A DNA stretch of 64,000 nucleotides. Source: an uncultured Gemmatimonadales bacterium. Its GTDB lineage: Bacteria; Gemmatimonadota; Gemmatimonadetes; Gemmatimonadales; GWC2-71-9. The notes below the pieces were generated by a model. The model was not told the DNA's origin. It worked only from the letters and a program-made list of their open reading frames with translations, and ran no database searches. The stretch lies in NCBI GenBank assembly GCA_963779755.1, contig CAVZZO010000001.1, forward strand, positions 1,340,845-1,404,844, written 5' to 3'. The translations under genes were made by a program, and so were the position numbers. Each line of letters opens with the position of its first letter. The stretch's first letter is position 1. This document shows, one piece after another, positions 5,004-55,741 of the stretch.

Positions 5004-5091
5004 CAGGGATCGGGGACCAGGGATCGGGAGTCAGGGCCCCTGATTCCTGATTCCTGATCCCTGGTCCCTGATCCCTGAATCCCCGATTCCC
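5004..5091. repeat. imperfect hairpin built from tandem heptamers (GGGATCG/GGGACCA arm against a TGATCCC/TGATTCC x6 arm)
   Basis: Read directly. The left arm cagggatcggggaccagggatcgggagtcaggg is roughly the reverse complement of the right arm ccctgattcctgattcctgatccctggtccctgatccctg. It fills the deoC-ALDH spacer. Confidence 0.8.
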
Positions 5092-5100
5092 GGTCTCTCT

Positions 5101-6600
5101 ATGGCCAGCATCCCCGAGATCTTCGAATCCCTCGACTACGGTCCCGCTCCCGAGTCGGCCGGCCCCGCCGTCGGCTGGCTGGAAAAGCACCAACGCCGGT
5201 TCGGGCTCTTCATCAACGGCGAGTGGGTGCAGTCCGGAGAGAGCTTTCCAACCGTGAATCCGGCTACCGGCGAGAGGCTGGCGGAGATCGCCCAGGCGGG
5301 GGAGCGGGAGGTCGAGCAGGCGGTGGCCGCGGCCGCGGCTGTGCAGCCGGCCTGGTGGAAACTCGGCGGCCACGGCAGGGCGCGCCATCTCTACGCCCTC
5401 GCCCGCCAGGTCCAGAAACACTCCCGGCTCTTTGCCGTGCTGGAATCGCTGGACAACGGCAAGCCCATCCGGGAGTCGCGCGATATCGACATCCCGCTGG
5501 TGGCGCGCCACTTCTATCATCACGCCGGATGGGCGCAGCTCATGGCCACCGAGCTGCCGGGCGAGGTGCCGGTGGGGGTGGTGGGGCAGATTATCCCCTG
5601 GAACTTCCCGCTGCTGATGCTGAGCTGGAAGATCGCGCCGGCGCTCGCCATGGGGAACACGGTGGTACTGAAGCCCGCCGAGTTCACCCCGCTGACCGCG
5701 CTGCTCTTTGCCGATCTCTGCCGGGAGGCGGGGCTGCCGCCCGGGGTGGTAAACATCATCACCGGCGATGGCCGCACCGGCGAGCTGCTGGTGCGCCACC
5801 CCGGCGTGGCCAAGATCGCCTTTACCGGCAGCACCGAGGTCGGCCGGCTCATCCGGACCGCCACGGCCGGCAGCGGCAAGCGGTTGTCGCTGGAACTGGG
5901 CGGCAAGTCGCCGTTCATGGTCTACGAAGACGCCGACCTCGACAGCGTCGTGGAAGGCGTGGTGGACGCGATCTGGTTCAACCAGGGGCAGGTCTGCTGC
6001 GCCGGGTCCCGTATTCTGGCGCAGGAGGGCGTGGCCGACGCTCTGGTATCGAAGCTGCGCGCCCGCATGGAATCCTTGCGCGTCGGCTCGCCGCTCGACA
6101 AGGCTGTGGATATCGGCGCCATCGTGGCGCCGGTGCAGCTGGAACGCATTCAGACCCTGGTGCGGCGCGGAGAGGAAGAGGGTGCCACCTGCTGGCAACC
6201 GTCCTGGGCCTGTCCCGAGGAGGGACTGTTCTACCCGCCCACCCTGTTTACCGATGTTGCTCCCTCGGCCACCATCGCCCAGGAGGAGATCTTCGGGCCG
6301 GTGGTGGTGCTCATGACCTTCCGCACGCCCGACGAATCGGTGGAGCTGGCCAACAACACACGCTACGGCCTGGCCGCCAGCCTCTGGACCGAGAACATCA
6401 ACCTGGCGCTCGATATCGCTCCCCGGGTGAAGGCGGGTACGGTCTGGATCAACTGCACCAACGTGTTCGATGCCGCCTCCGGCTTCGGCGGCTACCGGGA
6501 GAGCGGGTTCGGCCGCGAGGGCGGGAAGGAAGGCTTGTGGGAATACGTCCGGCCCACATGGGAATCCCAGGCCGGTGCGGAAGCACCGCCCGCCCCCCAC
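5101..6600 (+). CDS. aldehyde dehydrogenase, complete catalytic module; the literal ORF runs on without a stop to 7029 as off-frame-looking sequence
   Basis: ALDH motifs are present: PWNFPLLM, GNTVVLKPAEFTP, FTGSTEVG, ELGGKSP (catalytic Glu), QGQVCCAGSR (catalytic Cys), EEIFGPV and GYRESGFGREGG. Homology-like sequence ends near ..GLWEYVRPTWE (about 6560). The remaining 150 codons are Arg/Pro/Ala-rich junk. Confidence 0.8.
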
Positions 6601-7481
6601 CTGCCCGCCCGGCCGCCCGCCCGGTTGCGCTCCCTCCCATCGACCGCACCGCCAAGCTCTACATCGGCGGCAGGCAGGTGCGGCCCGACGGCGGCTACAG
6701 CGACCCGGTCCACGGCGCCGATGGCACGGTGCTGGGCGAGGTGGCCCGGGCCAACCGCAAGGACGTCCGCAACGCGGTGGAGGCAGCGCACCAGGCCGGC
6801 GGCTGGGCGCGCGCCACGGCGCACACCCGGGCGCAGATTCTCTACTATCTGGCCGAGAACCTCTCCGCCCGCTCGGAGGAATTCGTCCGCCGGGTGGCGG
6901 CGCTCACCGGTGAGCGCCGGGCCGCCGCGGCGCGCGAGGTGGCGCTCACGATCGAGCGGCTCTACACCTGGGCGGCCTGGGCGGACAAGTGGGACGGGGC
7001 GGTGCACCATACCCCGTTCCGCAATGTGACCCTTGCCATGCCGGAGCCGCTGGGGGTGCTGGGCATCGTCTGTCCGGCCGAGCGGCCGCTGCTGGGGCTG
7101 GTGGCCACCGTTGCTCCGGCCATCGCCATGGGCAATACCGTGGTCGCGGTGCCCTCGGAGGCGCTGCCGCTGGCCGCCACCGATTTCTATCAGGTCATCG
7201 ATACTTCCGATGTCCCGCCCGGCGTGGTCAACCTGTTGACCGGGCCGGCCGACGAGCTGACCCGGGTGCTGGCCGCGCACGACGATGTAGACGGACTCTG
7301 GTACTTCGGGTCCTCCCGGGGGAGCGCCGAAGTCGAGCGCCTCTCGGCCGCCAACATGAAACGGACCTGGGTGAGCTACGGCCGTGCGCGCGACTGGGCC
7401 GATCCCGTGCAGGGAGCCGGCCCGGAATTCCTGCGCCGGGCGACGCAGGTCAAGAACATCTGGATTCCCTACGGCGAGTAG
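6558..7481 (+). CDS. ALDH-like second module (NAD-binding half only, no catalytic Cys region). It is either the frameshifted C-terminal part of a fused two-module ALDH or a separate gene starting at ATG 6558.
   Basis: The frame of track ORF 5223..7481 becomes protein-like only from ..PPIDRTAKLYIGGRQVRPDGGY. It contains GNTVVAVPSE and PPGVVNLLTG, which parallel GNTVVLKPAE and PPGVVNIITG of module 1. It ends about 35 aa after the ELGGK-equivalent position. Confidence 0.65.
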   Translation: MGIPGRCGSTARPPPARPAARPVALPPIDRTAKLYIGGRQVRPDGGYSDPVHGADGTVLGEVARANRKDVRNAVEAAHQAGGWARATAHTRAQILYYLAENLSARSEEFVRRVAALTGERRAAAAREVALTIERLYTWAAWADKWDGAVHHTPFRNVTLAMPEPLGVLGIVCPAERPLLGLVATVAPAIAMGNTVVAVPSEALPLAATDFYQVIDTSDVPPGVVNLLTGPADELTRVLAAHDDVDGLWYFGSSRGSAEVERLSAANMKRTWVSYGRARDWADPVQGAGPEFLRRATQVKNIWIPYGE

Positions 7482-7493
7482 CGGGCTGGTCTC

Positions 7494-10393: not shown

Positions 10394-11386
10394 TCAGGGC
10401 CGTGGCACCAGGCGTTCGCCGGCCGCCACCCCGCTGGCGATCTCCCGTCGTCCGTCGGGGAGGAGGGCGCCCAGCCGGACCGGCCGCATGGTTGTCCGGC
10501 CATTGTCCCATACCAGCACGTAGCTGCTATCCACCACGGCGCGGTCCGGTACGGCCACCACCTGGCGGCGCTCGGCGCCCAGGCGCACTATCACCGCGGT
10601 GCCCACCCGGAAGCCGGGATGGGAGCCCACCTGCAGCACCACCTCGCGGGTGCCGCTGCCCGCGTCCACCGACGGCGAGGCCCGGATCACCCGGGCCGGT
10701 ACGGTGCCCAGGCCCGCCGCGACGACCTGGGCCGCGCTGCCCACTTCCACCGTGCGTGCCGGGGCCTCCGGCACGCGCACCGAGACCAGCAGCGGAGTCG
10801 TGGCCGTGACCTGGAAGAGGGAATCGCCCGGGCTGACCAGCCGCCGGGGACGGGCCATGCGCGCAGTGACGGCTCCCGCAAAGGGTGCCACGATGCGGGT
10901 GAGGTCGCGGTTGCGCTCTGCCTGGCGCAACGCGAGGGCGGCGTGCTGCACGGCGGTCGAGGCCAGTTCCGAGTCGGACGGGGCGACAAAGCCGGATTCC
11001 GCCAGCACCCGCTGGCGCTCCAGGATGCGGCCCGCATTCTCGAACGCCTCTTTCGCCTGGGCCACGGCAATATCCTGGTCCACGCTCTCCAGCCGGGCCA
11101 GCAGCTGGCCCTCCCGAACCCGGGCACCGAGATCCACATAGACCGATTCAATGATGCCCTCGGTCCGCGCGATGACCACCGCGTCGTGATCCACGTAGAG
11201 CTGCGCGGGCAGCTCCAGCGGCACGGCAACCGTCGCGGTCTCCGCCGCCACCAGTTGCACCTGCTCATCCCGGGATGGGGTGGCGGATGCCTCCCGCGGG
11301 GAGGGCGTCCCGTCGCAGGCAGGGAGCAGGGCGGCGCCGAGCAGGAGGGCCGCCGGCCCTGCACGGCGCAGGTGCGCGAATGTCAT
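10394..11386 (-). CDS. HlyD/RND-type periplasmic adaptor (membrane fusion protein), lipoprotein
   Basis: ATG at 11386 overlaps the upstream stop (ATGA). Signal peptide MTFAHLRRAGPAALLLGAALLPAC with a lipobox. Typical MFP pattern: ..IARTEGIIESVYVDLGARVREGQLLARLE.. then a coiled coil, then ..IVAPFAGAVTAR... Confidence 0.8.
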   Translation of the reverse strand: MTFAHLRRAGPAALLLGAALLPACDGTPSPREASATPSRDEQVQLVAAETATVAVPLELPAQLYVDHDAVVIARTEGIIESVYVDLGARVREGQLLARLESVDQDIAVAQAKEAFENAGRILERQRVLAESGFVAPSDSELASTAVQHAALALRQAERNRDLTRIVAPFAGAVTARMARPRRLVSPGDSLFQVTATTPLLVSVRVPEAPARTVEVGSAAQVVAAGLGTVPARVIRASPSVDAGSGTREVVLQVGSHPGFRVGTAVIVRLGAERRQVVAVPDRAVVDSSYVLVWDNGRTTMRPVRLGALLPDGRREIASGVAAGERLVPRP

Positions 11387-13714: not shown

Positions 13715-13882
13715 TCATAAGGGATGGGTGGACCTCCAGCCCTGCGCCGTCATGGGAGCGATACGCTCCTCCAGCTCCTGCACGCTGAGTTCCAGAGCCT
13801 CAGCGTCCTTGTTGGTGGCCTGGCGCACCTGCTCCCGCTGCTCGGGAGTCAGCACCAGTCGCACCGACGATCGATTCGCCAT
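13715..13882 (-). CDS. leader-like micro-ORF B (55 aa): MANRSSVRLVLTPEQREQVRQATNKDAEALELSVQELEERIAPMTAQGWRSTHPL
   Basis: This ORF is below the size cutoff of the supplied track and was found by hand translation of the minus strand. ATG at 13882, TGA at 13715-13717, GAGG about 8 nt upstream. About 24 of 37 core positions are identical to micro-ORF A. Confidence 0.6.
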   Translation of the reverse strand: MANRSSVRLVLTPEQREQVRQATNKDAEALELSVQELEERIAPMTAQGWRSTHPL

Positions 13883-13949
13883 ACGAACCTCGCCGAACCA
13901 GATGGAGAAAGGATGGCGGGAGAGCCCGGCTCTCCCGCCGTGATCATCC

Positions 13950-14108: not shown

Positions 14109-14172
14109 GGTAACCCCCTGTTGATGTGATGCGGTGAGTGGCGCGATCCACGGGAAGCAAGCTCGGGGGCGG

Positions 14173-14224
14173 CCGTGATATTTCCGTGATTTTCCCTTGC
14201 GGCCCCGTGATCGGGTGGTAGCTT
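14173..14224 (+). promoter_or_regulatory. three CCGTGAT heptad direct repeats (14173, 14184, 14205; spacing 11 and 21 nt) followed 7 nt later by a -10-like TAGCTT; candidate SARP-type activator site
   Basis: Read directly in the divergent spacer between micro-ORF A and the BTAD regulator. Helical-face phasing matches the known mode of SARP binding to heptameric repeats. Confidence 0.4.
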
Positions 14225-40800: not shown

Positions 40801-40803
40801 CAG

Positions 40804-42369: not shown

Positions 42370-42384
42370 GGGTTGGGGAGTATA

Positions 42385-42932: not shown

Positions 42933-42972
42933 GGGAACGGTCTGGCACGCCGGGCTCTTGTGCAGCATTCTC

Positions 42973-43052: not shown

Positions 43053-43087
43053 TCCTAACCCCATGTCCGCGCTATAATTCCCGGCTT

Positions 43088-44476: not shown

Positions 44477-44528
44477 CCGGCAGTCTGGACCGCGGCGCCA
44501 CCGGCGCCGCCTGCGACAGGAAGAGCTA

Positions 44529-44795
44529 ATGGCAACTCGCATTCGTCTGCGCCGCGTGGGCCGCAAGGGCGTGCCCCTCTATCGGATCGTCGTCGCCGAC
44601 CGGGAAAGTCCCCGGGACGGGCGCTTCATCGAGGTCATCGGGAGCTACAACCCGAAGTCCGAGAAGGCCCCGGTGACGGTCGATCAGGACAAGGCGCGGA
44701 ACTGGCTGGCCAAGGGCGCGACCCCCACGGAAACCGTGGCATCGCTGCTCAAGAAGGCCGGCGTCTTTCAGCCGGCGGCCGCGGCCTCGGAGTGA
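44529..44795 (+). CDS. rpsP: 30S ribosomal protein S16
   Basis: MATRIRLRRVGRKGVPLYRIVVADRESPRDGRFIEVIGSYNP. Confidence 0.95.
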   Translation: MATRIRLRRVGRKGVPLYRIVVADRESPRDGRFIEVIGSYNPKSEKAPVTVDQDKARNWLAKGATPTETVASLLKKAGVFQPAAAASE

Positions 44796-45325: not shown

Positions 45326-45339
45326 CCCCGGGAGCGGGC

Positions 45340-46026
45340 ATGCTGGCGATCAACGTGGTCACGCTCTTCCCGGAGGTCTTCGAGCCCTGGCTCCGGACCA
45401 GCATCCCCGGGCGGGCGGCCGAGGCGGGGCTGGTGCGCTACCGGCTGGTGCAATTGCGGAGCTTCACGCACGACCGGCACCAGACGGTGGACGACTACCC
45501 CTACGGCGGCGGGGCCGGCATGGTGCTGAAGCCGCAGCCGTTCTTCGAGGCGGTGGAGTCGCTGAAGCCCGCGGGGCCCGTGGTCCTGATGTCGGCACGG
45601 GGGAAGCCCTTCGGGCATGCCGATGCAGTACGGTATGCGGTGGCGCCGGAGTTGACGCTGCTCTGCGGCCACTACAAGGATGTGGACCAGCGGGTGGCCG
45701 ACTTCCTGGCCACGGAGGAGCGGTCGGTGGGCGATGCGGTCCTTTCCGGGGGCGAGCCCGCGGCGCTCTGTGTACTGGATGCCGTGGTGCGGCTGCTGCC
45801 GGGCGCCCTGGGCGACCACGAAAGCGCCAGCGGCGACTCGCATTACGACGGGCTGCTGAGCCCGCCCAGCTATACCCGCCCGCCGGAATACCGGGGGCAC
45901 GGCGTGCCCGAGGTGCTGCGCTCGGGCAACCACGCGGAGATCGACGCGTGGCGCCAGGCGGAGGCCCGGCGCCTCACGCGCGAGCGGCGGCCCGATCTGT
46001 GGCGGGCCTGGGACGAGCAGGAGTAG
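45340..46026 (+). CDS. trmD: tRNA (guanine37-N1)-methyltransferase
   Basis: ..NVVTLFPEVFEP...DDYPYGGGAGMVLKP...LLCGHYKDVDQRV...SGGEPAALCVLDAVVRLLPG.. Confidence 0.95.
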   Translation: MLAINVVTLFPEVFEPWLRTSIPGRAAEAGLVRYRLVQLRSFTHDRHQTVDDYPYGGGAGMVLKPQPFFEAVESLKPAGPVVLMSARGKPFGHADAVRYAVAPELTLLCGHYKDVDQRVADFLATEERSVGDAVLSGGEPAALCVLDAVVRLLPGALGDHESASGDSHYDGLLSPPSYTRPPEYRGHGVPEVLRSGNHAEIDAWRQAEARRLTRERRPDLWRAWDEQE

Positions 46027-46096
46027 CATTACAACACCGGCCGGCGCTCAGCGCCGGCGACATTGACGGCGCGATACCGGCGCGGAGGATACGGCT

Positions 46097-46444
46097 ATGG
46101 AGCGGTTGGCGGAGTTGAACCGGGAGAACCTGCGGGCGGACTTTCCCGCCTTCCAGCCGGGTGACACGGTGCGGGTGGCGGTTCGGGTCCGGGAAGGCGA
46201 CAAGGAACGTCTCCAGGCCTTCGAAGGTGTCTGCATCGCGCGCCGGGGCGGCGGGCTGCAGGAGTCGTTCACGGTGCGCAAGGTGTCGGCCGGCGTCGGG
46301 GTGGAGCGCATCTTCCCCCTGCACAGCCCGTCCATCGCCTCCATCGAGCTGGTGCGGCGCGGCCGGGTCCGCCGGGCCAAGCTCTACTACCTGCGGGCGG
46401 TGAGTGGCAAGGCCGCCCGGATCCGGGAGAAGCGCGAGAACTGA
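46097..46444 (+). CDS. rplS: 50S ribosomal protein L19
   Basis: ..[44 protein letters not shown]...ERIFPLHSP.. Confidence 0.95.
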
Positions 46445-46447
46445 GCC

Positions 46448-47116
46448 GTGCGGCGCCAGCGCCCCTCCCTCGCGCGCGAAGCCGAGGTCTGGGCGTCGGA
46501 ACGTCTGCTGGTCGGTGTGGATGAAGTCGGCCGCGGCCCCCTGGCTGGTCCAGTGGTGGCCGCGGCCGTCGTCTTTCCTCCCCACGTCACCCGCCTGTAT
46601 GGCCTGCGCGACAGCAAAGTCCTGACCGCCCGCCAGCGCGAGAAGCTGGCCGGCCGCATTCGCCAGCGGGCCCTGGCGCTGGCCGTGGGCGCCGCGTCCT
46701 GCCGCGAGATCGACCGCCTCAATATCCGGGTCGCCAGCGCGCTGGCCATGCGCCGCGCGGTCCGGCGGGTGCTCGTCCTTCTGCGCCGGGCCGAGCCGCC
46801 GGCCGCGCTGGCCGATCCCGCCGCCCGCTACCAGGTCCTGATCGACGGCCTGCCGCTGCCCGAGTTGGGCCTGCCGCACGACGCCCTGGTGGACGGCGAC
46901 GCGCTCTGCGACTCCATCGCCGCCGCCGCCGTCATCGCCAAGACGGTGCGCGACCATCTCATGGCGCGCCTGGCGCAGCGCTACCCCGGCTACGGCTGGG
47001 AGTCCAACATGGGCTACGCCACCGCCGATCACTGCGCGGCGCTGGGCCGGCGCGGCCCCACCCGGCACCACCGCCTCAGCTTCGAGCCATTGAGCCAGCT
47101 CCGGCTGCCGCTGTAG
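46448..47116 (+). CDS. rnhB: ribonuclease HII
   Basis: ..VGVDEVGRGPLAGPVVAAAV...DSKVLTARQRE...YPGYGWESNMGYAT..H.. Confidence 0.9.
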   Translation: MRRQRPSLAREAEVWASERLLVGVDEVGRGPLAGPVVAAAVVFPPHVTRLYGLRDSKVLTARQREKLAGRIRQRALALAVGAASCREIDRLNIRVASALAMRRAVRRVLVLLRRAEPPAALADPAARYQVLIDGLPLPELGLPHDALVDGDALCDSIAAAAVIAKTVRDHLMARLAQRYPGYGWESNMGYATADHCAALGRRGPTRHHRLSFEPLSQLRLPL

Positions 47117-47250
47117 AAGAACCGCGACACGGAGGCACGGAGGCACGGAGCAAGCGAGCTACTACGGCGGCGGCGCCTACGGGGTTATGTATTTAGAACT
47201 TATGTTCCTCCGTGTCTCCGTGTCTCCGTGTCTCCGTGTCACAGTTCTTC
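47116..47250. repeat. long-loop inverted repeat: arms GAAGAAC(CGC/TGT)GACACGGAG(G/A)CACGGAG.. of CACGGAG octamer units (3 units on the left, 4 on the right) around a ~57-nt lower-GC loop
   Basis: 47116-47150 against the reverse complement of 47208-47250, read directly. The right arm ends just before the pepN RBS (caggaga). Confidence 0.85.
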
Positions 47251-47263
47251 CAGGAGATCAGCT

Positions 47264-49714
47264 ATGAGACGTTTTCTCGTTATTGCTCTGATCCTCGCCC
47301 TCCCCGCCCCGCTCGCCGCCCAGTCCAATGCCGAGCGGATGGCCAACGACTGGTATACCCGCTCGCATGATTACGATCTGGTGCACCAGCGCATCCAGCT
47401 CCGCGACATCAACTGGGATTCCACCAGCTTCAAGGGCCGGGTCACCAGCACGCTCGTTGCCCTGCGGCCCGGGCTCGATTCGGTCATCCTCGACGCCGGG
47501 CACCTGCTGAGCATCCAGAGCGTCGTCACCCCGGCCGGCAGGCCGCTCAACTTCAGCACCTCGGGCGATACCCTGGTGGTGCACCTCGCCCGCCCCGCCG
47601 CGTTCCACGACACGGTCCGATTCAGTATCGCCTACGACGCCAGGATCCAGAACGGCCGCGGCCTCACCTTCATCGACGCCGACACCGGTGCCAACTGGCG
47701 GCCGCAGCAGATCTGGAGCCAGGGCGAGGACGACAACAACCACGACTGGTTCCCCACCTACGACTTCCCCAACGACAAGATGTCCTGGGAGATGATCGTG
47801 ACCCTGCCCACGCGGTTCAGTGTGGTCTCCAACGGGAAGCTGGTGAGCGACCGGCCGGCGGAGAAGGGGCAGCATACGGTGACCTGGAGCGAGACGGAGC
47901 CGAGTGCCACCTACCTGGTCTCGCTCATCGTCGCGCCCCTGGTCAAGGTGCACGATACCTGGCAGGGGAAGCCGGTGGATTACTACGTCTACGCCAGGGA
48001 CAGCACCCTGGCCTGGCGCCTCTTCCATGTGACGCCGGACATGATCCAGACCTATTCCGATCTCACCGGCATCAAGTACCCGTGGGCCAAGTATGCCCAG
48101 ACCACCGTCGCGGATTTCTTCGGCGGCATGGAGAACGTGAGCGCCACCACGCTGGTGGACTGGCTGCCCGACGCCACCGCCTACCTCGACCGGCCCTGGT
48201 ACCAGTACATCCTCATTCCCCACGAACTGGCCCACCAGTGGTTCGGCGACTACGTCACCACCGAGAACTGGGCCAACATGTGGCTCAACGAAGGCTTCGC
48301 CGAGTTCATGCCGGGGCAGTACTGGGCGAAGAAGCTGGGCCGCCATGCGGAAGAGGACTACTACCTGGACGAGTACAACTCGTTCATGCGCATCGACCAG
48401 CGCCGCCGGATGCCGCTGGCCTCGCTGGGCAGCAACAACATCTATCCCAAGGGCGCCCTGGTGCTGGAGATGCTGGAGCACTACCTGGGCCCGCAGGCGT
48501 TCTGGGCGTCCGTCAACCGGTACCTGAAGGACCACGCCTTCGACAACGCCACCAGCGACGACCTGCGCCAGGCCGTGCTGGATGCCACCGGACAGAACCT
48601 CGACTGGTGGTGGCAGCAGTGGGTCTACGATGCGGGCTATCCCGAGTTCACGGTCGGCGCGCAGTACGACAGCGCGGGCCACGCGCTGGTCCTGGATGTG
48701 AAGCAGACCCAGGTGGACACCAGCTCGGCCGACAGCACCGGGCTGCGCTATGGCACGCCCCAGGCCTTCCGCATGCCCGTCACGGTGCGGGTGGGCACCG
48801 CCGGGGGCGAGGTGACCCGGACCTTCCAGCTGGCACATCGTGAGGATACCCTGCGGGTGGAACAGGTGCAGTCACCGCCCACCATGGTGATCTTTGACGA
48901 CAACAATCAGATCCTGAAGAAGCTCACCTTCGACCAGCCCAGTGCCTGGCTGGCGCAGCAGCTGAGCCACGATCCCGATCTGTGGAACCGCTGGTGGGTG
49001 ATCGGCCAGCTGGCCGCGCGTGACAGCGATACGGTTGCCGTGAACGCCCTGGCCGACGCGGCGACCGGCGCGGATTACTACCTCACCCGGGTGCAGGCCA
49101 TCGGCGCGCTGGCCGACCTGGCGGGCGAGCGCGCCATGCCCACGCTTACCCAGGCGCTGCGCGACACCTCGGCGACGGTGCGAGGAGCTGCGGTGGAAGC
49201 CATGGGGCAGATCCCCGGGGGCCACGCCGTGGCGCTGCTCAAGCGGGTGCTGGCCGGCGATTCCAGCTACGCGGTGCGCGCCGCCGCTATCGGCGCGCTG
49301 GCGGTGGCGGACTCCGCCAATCGCCGGGAATACATCCAGCAGGGGCTCAGCACGCCGTCCTATCGCGGTGCCCTGCAGAACGCCGCGCTGGGCGTCATCG
49401 CCCGCAGCGGGGATACCAGCTACGTCGAGCCGGTGGCCCATCTCCTGGGCGACGTGCAGAACGCCGCCTTCGTGCTGGCCAGCTTCGCCAACCGGGGGAA
49501 CGCCCGGGCGCTCGACGTGCTGGTCAAGAACCTGGACAGTCCGCGTTCCACCGTCCGCAATTCCGTCCTCCAGGCCTTCCGCTTCGTGGTGCAGCCCAAG
49601 GTAGGGCTGCCCGCGCTCCAGGCCGCGGTGGACAGCCTCTCGCCCCGGGTGAAGGAGCAGGTGCAGGGGGTGCTCAAGCAGATGGAACAGCGGCAGGCGG
49701 GTAACGGGAGGTAA
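47264..49714 (+). CDS. pepN: M1 family aminopeptidase (aminopeptidase N-like) with C-terminal HEAT-like repeats
   Basis: ATG at 47264 with a signal peptide MRRFLVIALILALPAPLAAQ. GGMENVS exopeptidase motif and HELAHQWFGD..(18)..WLNEGFAEF zinc site. The C-terminal region is repetitive and helical. Confidence 0.85.
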   Translation: MRRFLVIALILALPAPLAAQSNAERMANDWYTRSHDYDLVHQRIQLRDINWDSTSFKGRVTSTLVALRPGLDSVILDAGHLLSIQSVVTPAGRPLNFSTSGDTLVVHLARPAAFHDTVRFSIAYDARIQNGRGLTFIDADTGANWRPQQIWSQGEDDNNHDWFPTYDFPNDKMSWEMIVTLPTRFSVVSNGKLVSDRPAEKGQHTVTWSETEPSATYLVSLIVAPLVKVHDTWQGKPVDYYVYARDSTLAWRLFHVTPDMIQTYSDLTGIKYPWAKYAQTTVADFFGGMENVSATTLVDWLPDATAYLDRPWYQYILIPHELAHQWFGDYVTTENWANMWLNEGFAEFMPGQYWAKKLGRHAEEDYYLDEYNSFMRIDQRRRMPLASLGSNNIYPKGALVLEMLEHYLGPQAFWASVNRYLKDHAFDNATSDDLRQAVLDATGQNLDWWWQQWVYDAGYPEFTVGAQYDSAGHALVLDVKQTQVDTSSADSTGLRYGTPQAFRMPVTVRVGTAGGEVTRTFQLAHREDTLRVEQVQSPPTMVIFDDNNQILKKLTFDQPSAWLAQQLSHDPDLWNRWWVIGQLAARDSDTVAVNALADAATGADYYLTRVQAIGALADLAGERAMPTLTQALRDTSATVRGAAVEAMGQIPGGHAVALLKRVLAGDSSYAVRAAAIGALAVADSANRREYIQQGLSTPSYRGALQNAALGVIARSGDTSYVEPVAHLLGDVQNAAFVLASFANRGNARALDVLVKNLDSPRSTVRNSVLQAFRFVVQPKVGLPALQAAVDSLSPRVKEQVQGVLKQMEQRQAGNGR

Positions 49715-49816
49715 GGCGGTAAGGCGGGAAGACGGGAAGGTGGGAAGAGGGAAAGGGGAATGGGGAACGGGCCGTTTCCCTGTTCCCCATTCCCGTTTCC
49801 CTTTAGTTTTCCCGCT
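49711..49816. repeat. purine-rich / pyrimidine-rich octamer-unit hairpin (GGTAAGGC GGTAAGGC GGGAAGAC GGGAAGGT ... against ..CTGTTCCC CATTCCCG TTTCCC..)
   Basis: The centre ggggaatggggaacgggccgtttccctgttccccattccc is a near-perfect palindrome. It starts inside the pepN stop codon region and ends 5 nt before the tRNA. Confidence 0.8.
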
Positions 49817-49820
49817 CTCC

Positions 49821-49893
<73 letters not shown>

Positions 49894-49902
49894 TTAGAGG
49901 GC

Positions 49903-49982
49903 GGCAAGACGGCAAGACGGCAAGACGGCAAGACGGCAAGACGGCAAGGCGGCAGGACGGCAAGACGGCAGGACGGCAGGTG
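49903..49982. repeat. 10-unit octamer array (GGCAAGAC x5, GGCAAGGC, GGCAGGAC, GGCAAGAC, GGCAGGAC, GGCAGGTG) directly 3' of the tRNA
   Basis: Read directly. No clear complementary arm nearby. It ends with the GGCAGGTGGA terminus shared with other arrays. Confidence 0.9.
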
Positions 49983-50158
49983 GACGAAACCAGAACGGTC
50001 CTCCGGGTGTGGGGGCCGCCTTTCCATTCTCCTACTGCCCTCCAACCCCTGTAGGTGTAAACCCTTACTTGCCGCCGCTGTCCTGGATGCTACAGTAGAT
50101 GTGTACGTTCAGCAGAACCCTGCTGCGACAGACCACCGCATAGCCCGTCTCGCTGCAC

Positions 50159-51016
50159 ATGACTGACACGCGAACCCGCCGCCGCGGCAACCGCGCAAAC
50201 CGGGATATTCCATCGCCTGTCGAGGCCGGAGATGGAGCGCAGCTGGCGCTCGACAACGCGCACCGTCACTTCGAGGCAGCCGGCATCCTGCGCGATGCTG
50301 AGCTCTACGCTTCCGCCCAGAGCCATCTGGTGCTGGCCACAGAGGAACTGGCCAAGGCAACCGCCCTGGCCACGGTCGCGGCCGGATTCCGCTGGCCGCC
50401 CGGCCACCTGGTGGAAGTCCTGTTCCATCGCGGTCCCCGGAACGCCCTGACCTTCGGCGATGTGCTGCTGGTCAGCATGCTGGGCGTGGCGCGGCGGGCG
50501 GCAGAGGTGGTGCAGGAGCGGAATGGCGTCCAGCGCTTTGTCCCTGAGCTGTGGAACGAGTTCAAGGCCGAATTCGAGCGCGAGAGCCGCGAGCTGACGG
50601 AGGGGTCGGGGGCTTCCGATCTCATGCAGAAGCTGCTGGGCTGGGTTCGGGAGGCCTCGAGCCGCAGAGACCAGGGCTTCTATGTTGACTTCACGGCGCG
50701 ATCAGGCTGGTGGGACCCGGGCAGCATCACCGCCGGGCAGCTGGCCCGGGACTACGAAATCGTAAAGGGATTGCTCGCGTTCCGCGGCCGGCAGATTACC
50801 GAAATGCTCGACCTGCAGCCCCAGCTCGATGAAACCGCCGCTACCCGGTTCACTGCCCTCCTCCAGGAGGCCAACTCTCTGGAGTTCGAGGAGATGCTGG
50901 CGCGCTTCATCTCCGTCGCCGAAGCCGATCCGGCTGCCATCTTCCTGCTCGCGCGCCACAGCTCGGACGCCGGTGACTGCGAAGGCGCGCTGCCCGAATC
51001 CCGGCAGGAGGCCTAG
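50159..51016 (+). CDS. AbiV-like (HEPN-type) abortive-infection family protein, tentative
   Basis: N-terminal pattern ..ALDNAHRHFEAAGILRDAELYASAQSHLVLATEELAKA.. and later ..RDQGFYVDF.. resemble the AbiV family as I remember it. No other motif was recognised. Confidence 0.4.
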   Translation: MTDTRTRRRGNRANRDIPSPVEAGDGAQLALDNAHRHFEAAGILRDAELYASAQSHLVLATEELAKATALATVAAGFRWPPGHLVEVLFHRGPRNALTFGDVLLVSMLGVARRAAEVVQERNGVQRFVPELWNEFKAEFERESRELTEGSGASDLMQKLLGWVREASSRRDQGFYVDFTARSGWWDPGSITAGQLARDYEIVKGLLAFRGRQITEMLDLQPQLDETAATRFTALLQEANSLEFEEMLARFISVAEADPAAIFLLARHSSDAGDCEGALPESRQEA

Positions 51017-51022
51017 GCCGGC

Positions 51023-51403
51023 CTACGGTTCCCGGAACCCCACCACGCTCCACCTCAGCCGTCCCGCCGCGGGGTCATGGGCGAACATCACCCAGCCCCG
51101 CTTGCTTCCGTGGCCGGTCAGATAGCTCAGGTGCACCAGGCCATGCTCGGCCTCTCCCTCACCCTCCAGGGTCACCCGCACCCGCAAATCCTCCGCCGTC
51201 ACGTCGCCTGCGTTCCTGACGGTGACCGGTAACGCGTAGCGCCCCGCGCGGGGCTCAGGCTGGCCCAATTCCACCTGAATCCGCGGCGGTATAGCGTCCG
51301 ACCGTGCCATTTCGTATACCAGCACCCCGGCGCAAGCCAGCACCAGCGCTCCGCCCGCAACGAGCACCAGCCATTCGAGCCAGTTCTTGCCTTGATCAGC
51401 CAT
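51023..51403 (-). CDS. small single-TM protein, TIGR02588-like partner of the upstream membrane protein
   Basis: ATG at 51403 shares one nt with the upstream stop (TGATG). N-terminal TM WLEWLVLVAGGALVLACAGVLVY, then a beta-rich domain ..YALPVTVRNAGDVTAEDLRVRVTLEG... Confidence 0.5.
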   Translation of the reverse strand: MADQGKNWLEWLVLVAGGALVLACAGVLVYEMARSDAIPPRIQVELGQPEPRAGRYALPVTVRNAGDVTAEDLRVRVTLEGEGEAEHGLVHLSYLTGHGSKRGWVMFAHDPAAGRLRWSVVGFREP

Positions 51404-52317
51404 CAGACCTGCAGCAGCAGTCGGCCCGCCGAGGAGCCGAGGGAAGCGGGAAGGCCGAGGACCACTACCTCGGCAATGGCCCGGTGCAGCGGCAGCTGCG
51501 TGAGGCGGCCGAAGAACCACAGCATGAGGGCGGAGACGAGCAGTGCCGCGGTGTACATGATCACGATACCCGCCGCCGCATCGTCGGGCCCGCTGGCCTG
51601 GCGGACCCAGCGTTGGTGCCCGTGGAAATCGGCCCAGTAGAGTACGCCCCCGCCGATAAGAATCGACAACAGCATGATGAGCAGGATCTGGCCGGGCGCC
51701 GCCTGGGTCCCCACGATGACGATCTCCTGAGTCGGGGCGACATTGGAGGCGACGAACACGGCCCCGCAGAGCGAGAGCACGAACTGACCCAGAAAGCGGG
51801 GAGTATCCTCCTCGCGGCGGCTCCCCTGATCCTGTTGCCCCTGCCGGCTGCCCAGTTGCGCTTTGCCCACCGAGACGCCGATCGCCACCATCATCGAGGC
51901 GATCACCACGATGCCGACCGCTTCCCGGATGCCGCTCGAGGCGTTGATCCGGCCCATGAGCCACAGCGCGAGTGCCGCCACCACCATGCCCAGCCCCATC
52001 TCTTCCACACTCTCGGCCATGACATCCAGCAGGGTGTGGGACCGGCGCAGGCCCGCATAGGCGTTGTAGCCCAGCAGGAGGAGGAAAGTGGCCCCCATAT
52101 AGCCCAGCAATGGGCCCGGGGCCATGGTCGCTCCCGTCTGCCACAACTCCATGGTGTAGAGCAGGGGAATGCTGAACAGCAGGCCGCCCGCCATGGCGCG
52201 GGCGTATTCACTGAGGGACTGCCGGACCGGCTTGGTCACGCCGCTGCTCCTCCCCTGGGTTCCTCTGCCTCCGGTATTCTCGCGGTGCAACGATACCGGC
52301 GCGTTGATGCCTGTCAC
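51403..52317 (-). CDS. polytopic membrane protein, TIGR02587-like (conserved two-gene pair of unknown function)
   Basis: ..SLSEYARAMAGGLLFSIPLLYTMELWQ.. followed by about 6 TM segments. The start is uncertain (GTG 52317 or GTG 52239). Confidence 0.55.
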   Translation of the reverse strand: MTGINAPVSLHRENTGGRGTQGRSSGVTKPVRQSLSEYARAMAGGLLFSIPLLYTMELWQTGATMAPGPLLGYMGATFLLLLGYNAYAGLRRSHTLLDVMAESVEEMGLGMVVAALALWLMGRINASSGIREAVGIVVIASMMVAIGVSVGKAQLGSRQGQQDQGSRREEDTPRFLGQFVLSLCGAVFVASNVAPTQEIVIVGTQAAPGQILLIMLLSILIGGGVLYWADFHGHQRWVRQASGPDDAAAGIVIMYTAALLVSALMLWFFGRLTQLPLHRAIAEVVVLGLPASLGSSAGRLLLQV

Positions 52318-52423
52318 AGAGCGGCGCCTTGCAGAGCACCACCCTGCCCGGTGCCTGGCTCAGCCGCCCACTCCCCGCCCGCTCCCCAATCGAGTAGCCT
52401 TGGAGGTCCCAACCAGGCCTCTC

Positions 52424-53380
52424 ATGCGCAATGTTCGCCTCCGCCGCTTCGCCGGCTACTTCTTCGCCCTGGCTGCGGGTACCGTCTGGGGCACCACCGG
52501 CCCGCTCTCGACCGCGCTCTACGGCCAGGGGGCCGACATTACGGGCATCGGCTTCTGGCGGGTGCTGCTGGGAACCGCGGGGCTGGTCGCTTACGGTGCC
52601 CTCTTCTACCGAGACATGTTCCGCATCGACTGGCGGGGATTCCTGCTGGTGGGTCTGGGCGGCGGCGCGCTGGTGGCGCTCTTCGAGGTGGCCTACCAGT
52701 TCGGTATCGCGGGCGCCGGGGTGGCCGGGGCCGCCGCGTTGCTGTATACCGCGCCCGTGCTGGTGGCGATCCTCGCCCTGCCGCTTCTGGGCGAAAAGCT
52801 GACCAGCATCCGGCTGATCCTGGCCGTGGTGGTCATGGTCGGCGCCGCCCTGACCGTCACCGGCGGGCGGCTGGGCGCCAGTGGCGCGGGGCCCGCCACT
52901 CTGGTGCAGGGCGTGGTGGGCGGGCTGCTGGCCGCGGCCAGCTACGCCGGGACCACCATTCTCGCCCGCTTCGCCGTGCCGCGCTACGGCACGCTGCGGG
53001 TGCTGTTCCTCGAGATCGCGGGTGGGGCGCTGCTCCTGGGCATCATCCTGCCGCTCGCTGGGCGGCCGCCGGCGGCTCCCACGGCAACTGAAGGCTGGAT
53101 CTATCTCGCGGCCCTCGCCGCCGGCCCGGTGCTGCTGGCCAATTTCTTCTTCTTCGCCGGCGTGAAGCGGATCGAGGCCGCACCCACCGCGGTGGCGGCC
53201 ACCATTGAACCGGTGGTGGGGGCGCTCCTCGCGCTCATCCTTTTCAGCCAGCGGCTCAGCCCCGTCGGGTGGCTCGGGCTGGCTCTGGTGGTGGGAGGGG
53301 TAGCGGCGGGCTACTGGCTGGAGGGCTCGGGAGAGCCGGATGTGACGCCCGTCCTCCCGGAGGCGGCCGAACGGATATAA
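52424..53380 (+). CDS. EamA/DMT-family transporter
   Basis: ATG at 52424 (MRNVRLRRFAGYFFALAAGTVWGTTGP). Ten predicted TM segments in two EamA-like halves (..LLYTAPVLVAILALPLLGEKL..). Confidence 0.8.
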   Translation: MRNVRLRRFAGYFFALAAGTVWGTTGPLSTALYGQGADITGIGFWRVLLGTAGLVAYGALFYRDMFRIDWRGFLLVGLGGGALVALFEVAYQFGIAGAGVAGAAALLYTAPVLVAILALPLLGEKLTSIRLILAVVVMVGAALTVTGGRLGASGAGPATLVQGVVGGLLAAASYAGTTILARFAVPRYGTLRVLFLEIAGGALLLGIILPLAGRPPAAPTATEGWIYLAALAAGPVLLANFFFFAGVKRIEAAPTAVAATIEPVVGALLALILFSQRLSPVGWLGLALVVGGVAAGYWLEGSGEPDVTPVLPEAAERI

Positions 53381-53459
53381 CGTCAGAGAAGACCCACGCA
53401 GGCCCGGGCGAGTCGGACCGCCTGGCCGGCCGCCCGCCTGCTCACCGCGCGGAGGGCCT

Positions 53460-53858
53460 GTGGTCAACGCTGTTCTGTTCGCCCTGTCGGTCGGGTTCTG
53501 CCTCACGTTCCTGCTGGTGGGCGTCTTCCGCTGGCGCCACCCGCGCCATCCGGCCATGTGGAAGGCCGCCGTCTTTCTCTTCGCCATCCTCTTTCTGGTA
53601 GTCCTGGTCGCCGGAGTCTGGCAGCCCAATTACGGGTCGCCCTGGGGGCAAGGGTACTGGGTCACGTTCGTGCTGGTCGGCTCCGTCGCGGCCATGTTTC
53701 TCGCCGCCGCCCCGCCGGAGCGGCGTCCGCCGCCGGAAGCGACAGCCGAGGTGGCCGAGTACCACGAGAAGGAGATTTCCGGCACCGTCTTCGGCGTGTT
53801 CTTCTGGATGCTGCTTCTTTCGCTGGGCCTGGTGCTGGGAATCCGGCTGATACACTAG
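53460..53858 (+). CDS. hypothetical membrane protein (4 TM)
   Basis: GTG start. Hydrophobic segments VLFALSVGFCLTFLLVGVF, AAVFLFAILFLVVLVAGVW, WVTFVLVGSVAAMFLAA and VFGVFFWMLLLSLGLVLGI. Confidence 0.5.
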   Translation: MVNAVLFALSVGFCLTFLLVGVFRWRHPRHPAMWKAAVFLFAILFLVVLVAGVWQPNYGSPWGQGYWVTFVLVGSVAAMFLAAAPPERRPPPEATAEVAEYHEKEISGTVFGVFFWMLLLSLGLVLGIRLIH

Positions 53859-53995
53859 GACGGCAGGACGGCCCTGAAGGACCTCCTCGCGGCCTCTTCG
53901 TTGGAGGGCCGCTCGGTCGCAGGACGGCAGGACGGCCCTAAAGGACTTCCTCGCGGCTCTCTATTGGAGGCCGCTCGGTCGCAGGACGGCAGGGG
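53858..53995. repeat. 2.2 tandem copies of a ~62-nt unit beginning AGGACGGCAGGACGGCCCT
   Basis: 53858-53920 and 53921-53982 align nearly base for base, with a few substitutions and a 1-nt length difference, followed by a partial third start. Read directly. Confidence 0.9.
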
Positions 53996-54037
53996 AAGGT
54001 GCCCACGCTCCGCGCCTGTTGGACGCCGATCTTCGCT

Positions 54038-54128
54038 CAGCCATCAGCCATCAGCCATCAGCCATCAGCCATCAGCCATCAGCCATCAGCCATCAGCCAT
54101 CAGCCATCAGCCATCAGCCATCAGCCCT
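54038..54128. repeat. perfect (CAGCCAT)x12 heptamer microsatellite plus one degenerate unit, continuing into CGCCTTCC-type octamers to about 54180
   Basis: Read directly. It causes the spurious ..SAISHQPSAISHQP.. ORF translations in three frames. Confidence 0.95.
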
Positions 54129-54209
54129 CCGTCCTCCGCCCTTCCCGCCTTCCCGCCCTGCCGCCTTCCCGCCTATTTTCCCCCCATCCTTCTTCAGGAT
54201 CAGTCACTC

Positions 54210-55067
54210 TTGGCCACGACGATCTGGCTCGACGGGAAGTGGTGCACCCGCGAGGATGCGGCGGTCTCCGTTTTCGACCATGGTCTGCTCTATGGCGACG
54301 GCGTCTTCGAGGGCATCCGGGCCTATGAGGGGCGGCTGTTCCAGCTGCAGGACCATCTGAAGCGCCTCTATGCTTCGGCCCGCTCCATCCTGCTGACGCC
54401 GCCGTTGTCGCTGGAGGAGATGACCTCGGTGACCGAGGAGGCGTTCCGGCGCTCGGGGCTCAGGGACGCCTACCTGCGACACATCGTCACCCGCGGTGTC
54501 GGCGATCTGGGCCTGAGTCCGCGCAACTGCCCCCGGCCGACGGTGATCATCATCGTGGACCAGATCAGGCTCTGGCCTCCAGAGCGCTACGAGCGGGGGC
54601 TGGACGTGATCACCGCGGCCACGCCCATTCCGCACCGTGAGGCGCTGTCGCCCCGGGTGAAGTCGCTCAACTATCTCTGCCACATCATGGCCAAGGTGGA
54701 GGGCATCAACGCCGGGGCAGACGAGGCCCTGATGATGGATCCGAACGGCATGGTGGTGGAAGCCAGCGGGCAGAATCTCTTCGTCGTGAAAGACGGCGTG
54801 CTCACCACCCCGCCCGCCTGGGCCGGCATTCTGCGGGGCATCACGCGCGACGCCGTCATGGGCCTGGCCCTGGAAGCCGGGCATCAGGTGGTGGAGCAGC
54901 CCCTGAACCGCTATGACATCTACACCGCCGATGAGGCCTTCCTGACCGGGACCGCCTCGGAAGTGGTGGCTATCCGGTCGCTGGACGCCCGGATCATCGG
55001 AGATGGCCGCCGTGGGCCCGTCACCCGGGCCCTGGCGGAGGCCTTCGCCCGGCTGGTCCGCAGCTGA
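54210..55067 (+). CDS. ilvE: branched-chain amino acid aminotransferase (class IV fold)
   Basis: Probable TTG start at 54210 with AGGA 10 nt upstream. ..IWLDGKW...VFDHGLLYGDGVFEGIRAYEGRLFQLQDHLKRL...VKSLNYL...EAFLTGTASEV.. Confidence 0.85.
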   Translation: MATTIWLDGKWCTREDAAVSVFDHGLLYGDGVFEGIRAYEGRLFQLQDHLKRLYASARSILLTPPLSLEEMTSVTEEAFRRSGLRDAYLRHIVTRGVGDLGLSPRNCPRPTVIIIVDQIRLWPPERYERGLDVITAATPIPHREALSPRVKSLNYLCHIMAKVEGINAGADEALMMDPNGMVVEASGQNLFVVKDGVLTTPPAWAGILRGITRDAVMGLALEAGHQVVEQPLNRYDIYTADEAFLTGTASEVVAIRSLDARIIGDGRRGPVTRALAEAFARLVRS

Positions 55068-55398
55068 AGCCGGGCGGCCTTGACCGCCCGCGCGCGTGGC
55101 CTGCATATTGCCCGTCCACCCCAGGTACCCTCAGGCTTGGAGTTCCCCCATGGCATGGCGCAGAGTCTCGCACGGGAATACCGTGTACGACGTCATGGCT
55201 GCCGCCGAACGAACCGGACCATCCGCTGCCTGGCGGCTGGTGCTTGCTTTCAGGACCAGCGGCCGCCGGGCAGTGTGGGCCCCGTATCCGCTCATCTCGA
55301 GTTCACGATCGTCCCTGTTTGCGCAGGCCGACCAGCTGTCGGACGAGAAAATCAGCGCCGTCCTCGCCGATCACCTGTCCTAATCTCCCAGGAGAACA

Positions 55399-55653
55399 AT
55401 GCCCCAGGCCTCACTGCAGGATCTCCGGCGGATCGCCGAGTCCCTGGAGAGTCTGCGCGGGCACTCGGTACTCGAGACTTCCGTCCGCTCCGATTTCCGC
55501 CAGCTCCGGCTGGAGCTGTCCGATGGGATGATCCTGGTCGTCGCGCTGGAGAGCGATGAGAACGGCCGGCCCCGTATCGACGTGGATGTCGTCCGCCAGC
55601 CCGAGGAAATGAACCGCCAGCAGCTCGAGGTGCGATTCGACACGGCGGTCTGA
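55399..55653 (+). CDS. hypothetical small protein (84 aa)
   Basis: Strong RBS (cccaggagaacaATG), coding-like composition, no recognisable motif. Confidence 0.5.
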   Translation: MPQASLQDLRRIAESLESLRGHSVLETSVRSDFRQLRLELSDGMILVVALESDENGRPRIDVDVVRQPEEMNRQQLEVRFDTAV

Positions 55654-55662
55654 GCCACAGCT

Positions 55663-55741
55663 GAAAGAGAAAAGCCGACAAAACCTGAGAGAGGGGGAGG
55701 AACCACGATTCCTTCCCTTTCCTCTTTTCTCCTTCCTCTTC
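55663..55741. repeat. imperfect purine-rich / pyrimidine-rich hairpin between convergent genes
   Basis: gaaagagaaaag...gagagagggggaggaa - ccacga - ttccttccctttcctcttttctccttcctcttc. The pairing is only approximate. Confidence 0.5.

Follow-up and report, generated by a model that had tools for sequence, protein, structure and literature searches.

Families of tandem 7–9-nt arrays, often mirrored as hairpins, in the intergenic DNA of a Gemmatimonadales genome

Genomic context and inventory of the arrays

We analysed a 64,000-nt stretch of DNA from an uncultured Gemmatimonadales soil bacterium (assembly GCA_963779755.1, contig CAVZZO010000001.1, positions 1,340,845 to 1,404,844), hereafter the window, whose intergenic spacers carry short tandem arrays of 7–9-nt units, many of them paired with an inverted partner array in a hairpin. 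The G+C content is ~69% across the window. The gene map, drawn from codon usage and Pfam checks (~25 window proteins were scanned), is densely coding, with ~9% of the window intergenic. The window Ffh protein shares 74–77% identity with the best genomes in our collection, and the match group is Gemmatimonadales. Arrays were called with Tandem Repeats Finder and stems by an inverted-repeat search, folding z scores refer to dinucleotide shuffles, and array enrichment was measured against 100 dinucleotide shuffles of the window. Comparison contigs are denoted by L numbers (L001–L010, L042, L082–L086, L092, L147 and L207–L209); the metagenomes with the close relatives are SRR34261198, SRR34261154, SRR15167846 and ERR11718636.

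The initial annotation had listed 14 loci as hairpins with tandem-unit arms. Both searches together bear this out for eight of them, whose arms are tandem 7–9-mer arrays. Two further entries, 42385–42420 and 42973–43052, are not separate hairpins but the two arms of a single ~45-bp stem. The remaining four did not hold up as hairpins of this kind: two are plain arrays, one does not fold as a unit and one has no tandem units. The folded hairpins have stems of 15–34 bp, energies down to -90 kcal/mol and z scores of -3 to -9. Loop length among inverted pairs spans 7–550 nt, and the centres bear no relation to one another. The elements are as follows, with a strand where one was assigned.

5004–5091: heptamer hairpin (GGGATCN/GGGAATC type, period 7) filling the spacer between a deoC-like gene and an aldehyde dehydrogenase gene; ~34-bp stem, loop of 8–10 nt, arms 91% complementary, -72.3 kcal/mol, z -8.45.
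23206–23256: hairpin (CTCGACCCC)2 ... (GGGTCGAGR)2.8 in a co-directional minus-strand spacer; 18-nt arms, 94% complementary, z -4.39.
26816–26864: hairpin of the same GTCGAGGG family as 23206–23256 with its arms in the opposite order, located in a minus-strand spacer between co-directional genes; just two units per arm, z -2.95.
27361–27383: unpaired array of three GACCTTT units directly past the stop codon of the minus-strand gene at 27385–29088; the inverted-partner search within the window was negative.
36038–36092, plus strand: GGCARGRC-family hairpin of 55 nt, set precisely between the Shine–Dalgarno (SD) sequence (AGGGGA) and the start codon (ATG) of the gene for purine-nucleoside phosphorylase (PNP); z -6.14.
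36921–37070: 150-nt element between convergent genes, with 26–30-nt arms (AACCGCAAAGACGCGAAGGGCGCGAAGG) and a structured 95-nt centre; z -7.9.
40653–40800: 148-nt element between convergent genes, with arms ATTCACCGCGAAGACGCCAAAGGCGCGAAG of the arm family of 36921–37070 and a centre unrelated to it; z -7.0.
42385–42420, plus strand: array (GGCGGCAG)4 with terminal GGCAGGTGG, the left arm of a long-range stem, abutting the -10-like ATACTC of the minus-strand DUF445 gene.
42973–43052, plus strand: array (CCGCCTTG)10, the right arm of the same stem, whose last unit forms the -35-like TTGC of the ffh promoter.
43567–43625, minus strand: in-frame 8-mer array, CCTGCCGT repeated 3.6 times (GGCAGGAC family), coding for an 18-aa loop insertion in Ffh.
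47116–47250, plus strand: 135-nt hairpin after rnhB, with arms GAACCGCGA(CACGGAGG)3 and (CTCCGTGT)4CACAGTTC; z -8.87.
49711–49816, plus strand: graded array passing from GGTAAGGC through GGGAAGAC to GGGAAWG, with an inverted arm, between the stop codon of an M1 peptidase gene and tRNA-Lys; 24-nt arms, 92% complementary, z -4.0.
49903–49982, plus strand: array (GGCAAGAC)9.6 with terminal GGCAGGTGG, 10 nt past tRNA-Lys (49821–49893), with no partner in the window.
53858–54180, plus strand: composite spacer of (AGGACGGC)2 within a 64-nt repeat (2.2 copies), TCAGCCA repeated 12.9 times (54037–54126) and CCTTCCCG repeated 4.4 times (54136–54174); its ends are complementary, and the TCAGCCA block has no partner in the window.
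55663–55741: weak purine-rich/pyrimidine-rich hairpin between convergent genes, without tandem units; z -1.52.

For 53858–54180, a single-hairpin interpretation was rejected, as the whole fold is no better than shuffled sequence (z +0.48). The element at 55663–55741 is probably not a member of the class.

Enrichment and placement

Arrays of period 7–9 are about ninefold over-represented, at 19 in the window against a mean of 2.2 and a maximum of 5 in shuffles, and they cover 536 bases against a shuffled mean of 4. The elements are thus more frequent than composition predicts, and individual arrays reach 12.9 copies. Seventeen of the 20 arrays of period 7–8 are intergenic, in a window where intergenic DNA makes up 9% (binomial p ~2e-15), and arrays of periods 6, 9 and 12 are mostly coding. 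The exception to this non-coding confinement is the array in ffh, an inserted segment of 54 nt (18 codons) that keeps the reading frame. Overall, the listed elements occupy 24% of the window's intergenic DNA. With about a quarter of this DNA made of arrays, annotation of promoters, terminators, small RNAs and untranslated regions in the phylum must take them into account.

Spacers of at least 40 nt contain an element in 14 of 33 cases, comprising all three convergent spacers, 10 of 25 co-directional ones and one of five divergent ones. In a further four convergent pairs of the window the genes are ≤12 nt apart. In the 20 kb examined for intrinsic terminators (33000–52999), sites combining a stem with a U-tract numbered two against 6.7 expected from shuffles, in agreement with the early remark that the hairpins lack U-tracts. 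Plain GC-rich hairpins without U-tracts also occur at several gene 3' ends (for example 24375–24466, 25520–25645 and 13865–13949). When the window was searched against Rfam 15, tRNA-Lys alone passed the gathering score. At a permissive threshold the hairpins gave sub-threshold matches to generic miRNA precursors and to no family.

Beyond the window, Gemmatimonadota loci carry 5.1 bases per kb in arrays, compared with 0.35 in 1.25 Mb from other phyla, and an inverted partner accompanies 27 of 134 arrays in Gemmatimonadota versus 10 of 301 elsewhere. Five of those 10 lie on one contig labelled as a Deltaproteobacteria metagenome-assembled genome (MAG), in a heptamer version of the architecture. 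This contig (L042, 54% G+C) has heptamer hairpins of CGTAAAT, GTAGGCA and CATAGAG units at 4317–4401, 4961–5010 and 10518–10585, and the phenomenon therefore extends beyond Gemmatimonadota. Array load is patchy: L001, L005, L007 and L009 have none, and L207–L209 have 12–15 per locus (6–7.6 per 10 kb).

Turnover of units at orthologous spacers

Gene order around ffh is conserved among relatives, so that orthologous spacers can be compared. One such site is the junction between the nucleoside transporter and PNP genes. In the window it reads TGA-AGGGGAAA-[55-nt hairpin]-ACC-ATG, and in L006, which has TGATGGAGAACCGATG and no hairpin there, it reads TGA-TGGAGAACCG-ATG; in L010 the spacer is 30 nt. 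The window hairpin is a clean additional segment between SD and ATG, with no target duplication. All three close-relative contigs (L084, L085 and L086; PNP 88–90% identical in amino acids and ~82% in nucleotides) have a hairpin at this site. That of L084 uses the GGCAAGAC unit of the window in a different copy number, with at least eight copies in one arm, and those of L085 and L086 use GGTCAGAC-type units in both arms.

Comparable variation was found at other junctions. Between the convergent PNP and thiD genes, the CGCGAAG-type hairpin measures 150 nt in the window and ~70 nt in L084, is reduced to a 26-nt remnant in L085 and L086, and is absent from L010, where the spacer is 14 nt. After rnhB, the outer ends (GAACCGCGA ... 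TTCTTCC) are common to the window and L082 (flanks 82–87% identical in nucleotides), and the arms are (CACGGAGG)3/(CTCCGTGT)4 in the former versus CGCGAAG-type in the latter. The convergent spacer at the 3' end of the DUF445 gene (40653–40800) contains GACGCGAAG with period 9 in the window, and GACGCAAR (L208) or GACGGAAA (L209) with period 8 in relatives. Past tRNA-Lys, the window, L008 and L003 each have their own, different array. At gene junctions that hold a hairpin in the window, some relatives have spacers of 14–30 nt without one.

Position and architecture are accordingly inherited, whereas the two arms jointly switch unit, copy number and even period; the proposal that structure is conserved while the unit changes is borne out by these spacers. 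Internally heterogeneous arms also mirror each other in register, with scores of 23, 24 and 18 against 14/8, 3/11 and 5/2 after one-period shifts, and at 5004–5091 the variant units are mirror-symmetric between the arms. Copy numbers differ between arms (3 vs 4 at 47116–47250 and 4 vs 10 around the PF05635 gene described below), and a hairpin of L006 has a 14-nt duplication of two units in one arm.

Unit families shared between loci and relatives

The units had at first been taken as specific to each locus. This view is not sustained, since the same units turn up again at several other loci and in the genomes of relatives. Dimers of GGCARGRC match 30 times at seven window loci against 0.85 expected. 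Arrays of this family mostly terminate in the variant unit GGCAGGTGG, giving the form (GGCARGRC)n-GGCAGGTGG, and GGCAGGTGG/GGCAGGTCC ends were found at 36038, 42385, 49903 and the ffh array as well as in L084, L092 and L147. A ~30-nt arm, ACCGCGAAGACGCGAAGG, is common to 36921–37070 and 40653–40800 (four matches vs 0.08 expected), two elements that align in their arms alone and have unrelated centres. The TTCACCGCGAAG-type family is present at two to three window loci, with TTCACCGCGAAG termini at 36921 and 40653 and in L082, L084 and L085, and the GTCGAGGG unit occurs at two window loci. Families and their hosts are as follows.

GGCARGRC family: the window and L084.
GGAARGRC family: L208 and L209.
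AAAGACGC family: L002, L008 and L208.
GGTGAGA family: L003 and L207.
CACGCTG family: L010 and L083.

Relatives contain further units, such as GTGCTTG and GCTATCA. The family consensus differs by species across loci, being GGCARGRC in the window and L084 versus GGAARGRC in L208 and L209. A metagenome scan with the head of the GGCARGRC family, GGCARGRCGGCAGGTGG, returned 120 stretches, of which 118 were single chance matches; arrays were recovered only in L147 and L092. The families are few, dispersed and heritable, with conserved ends, each behaving like a repetitive extragenic palindromic (REP) or short tandemly repeated repetitive (STRR) family with its own consensus. The statement that no single consensus of REP or MITE (miniature inverted-repeat transposable element) type unites the elements stands.

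Arrays around a PF05635 gene and within ffh

The two arms of the long-range stem enclose a single gene, and the protein-coding array lies shortly downstream.

42507–42932, plus strand: gene of the PF05635 family (23S rRNA intervening-sequence protein; Pfam E 5.8e-28), enclosed by the inverted arrays 42385–42420 and 42973–43052.
43088–44476, plus strand: ffh, which encodes the essential signal recognition particle (SRP) protein Ffh and contains the in-frame array 43567–43625.

The enclosing arrays are 550 nt apart and pair in a stem of ~45 bp (z -5.75). The arrangement recurs in L209, where (GGGCGGAA)4.8 and (CCGCCTTT)3.8 flank a PF05635 gene at 5645–6167, and in L208, where arrays with drifted units bracket a 65-aa open reading frame (ORF) at 1707–2082. 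L010 has a weak PF05635-like ORF in the matching position on the opposite strand. In all three array-bearing genomes the arms differ in ways that G·U pairing accommodates on the sense strand of the gene, and the plus-strand duplex is therefore more stable than the minus-strand one (-88.5 vs -76.4 kcal/mol in the window, -66.8 vs -61.3 and -35.5 vs -29.5 kcal/mol in the others). In the 23S rRNA intervening sequences of Leptospira and other bacteria, a PF05635 ORF lies inside a long flanking stem. The likeness is that a PF05635 gene is bracketed by complementary flanks (42385–43052 in the window, and L209 and L208), which in the rRNA case are cut by RNase III. The difference is that the present gene lies outside rRNA genes and that its flanks are 8-mer arrays.

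Window Ffh has 18 extra loop residues relative to seven orthologues. The same loop is encoded in L207, L208 and L209 by near-perfect 8-mer arrays with the distinct units CCCGTCCT, CGTCCTTC and CCGCCCGA. Many Gemmatimonadales Ffh proteins carry 12–23 variable residues at the insertion point and are 455–466 rather than 443–445 aa long, and on these grounds a recent, window-specific insertion was rejected. Read in frame, (GTCCTGCC)n encodes VLPSCRPA, comparable to PAVLPSSRPA in the window and PSFRPSVLPS in P0264. Arrays can thus supply protein sequence, as the loop segment PAVLPSSRPA exemplifies. Upstream of ffh (43053–43090 in the window, and the corresponding sites of L001–L010), a TTGAAC-like -35 and a TATAAT or TATCTT -10 element are followed by conserved GGCTTATG. 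This arrangement implies an ffh mRNA that would be leaderless or nearly so.

Comparison with known bacterial repeats

The initial annotation knew of no description of such hairpins, but related repeats have been reported. The closest precedent is the set of inverted GGGAATC heptamer pairs of Xanthomonas, for which Rehm et al. 2015 (PMC4692102) described arrays with stem-loop potential in 70–75 inverted pairs per genome. These arrays are non-coding, lie near gene ends, are under-represented between divergent genes and are of unknown function; Xcc and Xac differ in their length and sequence but preserve the type, single or inverted pair. The Xanthomonas and Nostoc unit is GGGAATC or GGGGA(C/T)T (PMC4692102). 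Only 5004–5091 has this GGGNATC unit type. In contrast to a single G-rich consensus, the window holds many families, mostly octamers within periods of 7–9, mostly without G-quadruplex (G4) potential, in a Gemmatimonadales host, with concerted change of both arms and an in-frame array in ffh. Of the features tied to quadruplex formation in Xanthomonas and Nostoc, at least four G3 tracts and a preference for four units, the first is lacking from most families here and the second was not seen.

Mrazek et al. 2007, as represented in PMC4679880 and PMC4692102, found repeats with 5–11-nt units, heptamers above all, to be over-represented in large GC-rich genomes and proposed polymerase slippage as their cause. 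The likeness to the long simple sequence repeats (LSSRs) and STRRs of cyanobacteria and other genomes lies in the following: a few dispersed families of the 7-nt class, shared here by relatives, over-representation in large GC-rich or cyanobacterial genomes, and confinement to intergenic DNA of periods that are not multiples of three. The window arrays have both head-to-tail units of 5–11 nt beyond chance expectation and dispersed, shared families. They differ from the LSSRs and STRRs in that inverted-pair hairpins are the rule, the main period is 8 and drift of the unit at orthologous loci is documented.

With REPs, bacterial interspersed mosaic elements and REP doublets forming hairpins (REPINs; Bertels & Rainey 2011, PMC3116915) the elements share species-specific, short extragenic families, several per genome, and inverted doublets placed as hairpins at gene 3' ends and between cistrons. 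However, each arm is here built as a tandem array instead of one imperfect palindrome, and neither spacing nor centres are conserved. The TAACTGA repeats of Beggiatoaceae (MacGregor 2015, PMC4679880) are likewise intergenic heptamer arrays near start codons with a sporadic phylogenetic distribution, but consist of one unit with almost no inverted arrangement (one indirect repeat) in a low-GC marine host. We found no description of such repeats specific to Gemmatimonadota or Gemmatimonas in the literature, of which searchable coverage is incomplete. New here are the host phylum, octamers as the predominant unit, several families side by side, the near-systematic mirroring, the concerted replacement in both arms and the coding array in ffh. 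The scattered reports of heptamer repeats in Xanthomonas, cyanobacteria and Beggiatoaceae thereby gain a counterpart in Gemmatimonadales, and probably one in a Deltaproteobacteria MAG, which suggests a general mode of spacer evolution.

Origin and possible role of the arrays

The arrays are non-random, intergenic, structured into families, heritable at individual loci and evolving in concert. Mirrored arrays form hairpins of 15–45 bp, and the families are characteristic of one Gemmatimonadales lineage. On balance, we lean towards the view that they are dispersed families of long-unit simple repeats (7–9 nt, STRR/LSSR-like) that occupy almost any dispensable spacer, often as mirrored inverted pairs, and that arise by slippage and template switching, with an RNA role as the weaker component.

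Arms would grow and shrink by replication slippage, which is proposed because of the unequal copy numbers and the two-unit duplication in L006. New unit variants would spread along one arm and be transferred to the other through template switching within the molecule, established in E. coli genetics as quasipalindrome correction, keeping the arms mirror-identical; the in-register symmetry of heterogeneous arms favours such copying between arms over drift of each arm on its own. New loci might be seeded now and then by ectopic copying or insertion. Function is regarded as dispensable because relatives lack hairpins at many sites. Transcribed hairpins may act in a REP-like manner, as punctuation of 3' ends and operons and possibly as RNase III substrates. 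The contrast originally drawn between a generating mechanism and REP/MITE spread thus survives in part: the observations fit slippage with template switching, but each family still resembles a REP or STRR family with its own consensus. The arrays are a natural case of evolution that preserves structure while replacing sequence and could be used to gauge rates of slippage and quasipalindrome correction in nature.

Several points weigh against this preferred view. Slippage and template switching are, for this organism, deduced from sequence patterns. L085 and L086, two samples of one relative that are 99.9% identical, have identical arrays; over short times and within populations there is therefore neither hypermutability nor rapid turnover. 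Hairpins retained at the same spacers across species (~77% Ffh identity) suggest more selection than the word dispensable allows. The comparison of sense and antisense folding for 25 hairpins gave no consistent strand bias, so selection at the RNA level is not demonstrated. Finally, the clean insertions (between SD and ATG and in frame in ffh), the conserved ends and the shared families would be explained at least equally well by a mobilizing enzyme.

The last point bears on two related proposals. In one, which we hold to be rather unlikely, the elements are non-autonomous and REP/REPIN- or MITE-like, spread through a family head by an enzyme such as a REP-associated tyrosine transposase (RAYT) or an IS200/IS605-type HUH protein, with the tandem units secondary. 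Dispersed families with conserved ends (GGCAGGTGG/GGCAGGTCC and the TTCACCGCGAAG termini), the clean 55-nt insertion at the SD site, a lineage distribution ranging from no arrays to 12–15 per locus and the genome-wide shift of consensus between species all fit enzyme-driven spread. Yet the two ~150-nt elements have unrelated centres and are therefore not copies of one MITE. In an alignment of three ~140-nt elements the match was confined to the arms, so that arms like terminal inverted repeats are present but the internal sequence is not conserved, and the MITE candidate was rejected. Single arms such as ACCGCGAAGACGCGAAGG and (GGCAAGAC)n are not palindromic, unlike REPs, although conserved ends do exist; inverted pairs occur as in REPINs, but with unconserved spacing; and the flanks examined showed no target-site duplication. 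No transposase-like or RAYT gene was found among the ~25 proteins of the 64-kb window scanned against Pfam, orthologous elements swap their unit in place while keeping their outer ends, and the metagenome scan for the family head yielded almost only chance matches. The other proposal, about as doubtful, is an active, lineage-restricted copy mechanism, enzymatic or based on the replication fork, that creates and homogenizes mirrored octamer arrays genome-wide. It would explain the shift from GGCARGRC to GGAARGRC in step, the fixed polar end GGCAGGTGG, the clean SD/ATG insertion and the species-variable array in the Ffh loop. If true, the arrays would form a new class of self-renewing palindromic microsatellite and not passive products of slippage.

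A tentative alternative, possible but less than probable, is that the hairpins are selected structural RNA signals (terminators without a U-tract, 3'-end stabilizers or RNase III stems) maintained by compensatory evolution, with the tandem units as a by-product. The elements are not U-tract terminators: they have stems, as intrinsic terminators do, but no U-tracts. Their placement at gene 3' ends, between cistrons and after tRNAs, together with the scarcity of canonical terminators, suggests by analogy with REP/BIME elements that they may serve RNA 3'-end stabilization or processing. Occupancy of all convergent spacers above 40 nt and of 10 of 25 co-directional ones, arrays immediately following tRNA genes (window, L003 and L008), and conservation of position and architecture across species despite sequence turnover point the same way, as do the G·U-compatible arm differences of the PF05635 stem and the three of three arm mismatches at 5004–5091 that are G·U on the sense strand. 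Against this, folding of the 25 hairpins does not consistently favour the sense strand and several are far more stable antisense, relatives are hairpin-free at the same junctions, four convergent window spacers are ≤12 nt, and arrays also lie upstream of promoters and in a coding loop. U-tract-less hairpins are, moreover, poor terminators for mycobacterial RNA polymerase in vitro. A strong or essential role is disfavoured by the lack of a general sense-strand bias, the relatives without hairpins and the arrays beside promoters. Protein-binding arrays, whose cognate protein would read a 7–8-nt register on DNA or RNA and co-evolve with the consensus, are improbable: the consensus shift between GGCARGRC and GGAARGRC genomes and the abutment of arrays on ffh and DUF445 promoter elements would suit them, but one genome combines several unrelated families and periods, an 8-bp period is a poor fit to helical phasing and no candidate protein was identified. 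Equally remote, or slightly more so, are regulatory G4 or i-motif repeats as proposed for GGGAATC in Xanthomonas and Nostoc. The locus 5004–5091 has at least five GGG tracts spaced 7 nt apart on the G-rich arm of each strand and the unit type of PMC4692102, and GTCGAGGGG and GGGAAGRC units contain G3–4 tracts. Most families, though, have GG or no G-tract at all (GGCAAGAC, CACGGAGG, CGCGAAG, TCAGCCA and GACCTTT in the window; GTGCTTG, GCTATCA and CACGCTG in relatives), and copy numbers range from 2 to 13 with no mode at 4. A compositional or assembly artefact would be conceivable, given that the source is probably a MAG and that the L084 contig breaks within an array, but is refuted for practical purposes: no dinucleotide shuffle came near the array load of the window; over 2190 nt, ffh array included, an independent Logan assembly matches the window at 100% identity; and more than 10 assemblies, independent of one another, have the same architecture at orthologous sites.

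Additional observations

Between tRNA-Lys and a class IV aminotransferase gene, which lie close together in L001, L003 and L008, the window has ~4 kb of additional DNA (49894–53858). It encodes an AbiV-type HEPN protein (50159–51016), a 126-aa ORF, a DUF2391 protein, an EamA transporter and a 132-aa ORF, has a slightly lower G+C content and may be an island inserted beside tRNA-Lys.

Adjacent to the heptamer hairpin, two long ORFs overlap in different frames at 5101–7481. The aldehyde dehydrogenase gene at 5101–7029 is full (Pfam residues 42–485), and a second, partial frame at ~6700–7481 (profile positions 12–236) could be a truncated paralogue or a frameshift. In the divergent spacer at 14150–14215, CCGTGAT occurs three times, the first two copies 11 nt apart (Tandem Repeats Finder row 14173–14195), and may be a regulator binding site. 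A relatively AT-rich spacer at 61500–61600 contains two direct copies of AGCGAGCGCTCAC ~30 nt apart, each with the palindrome GAGCGCTC, and this pair looks like putative operator sites.

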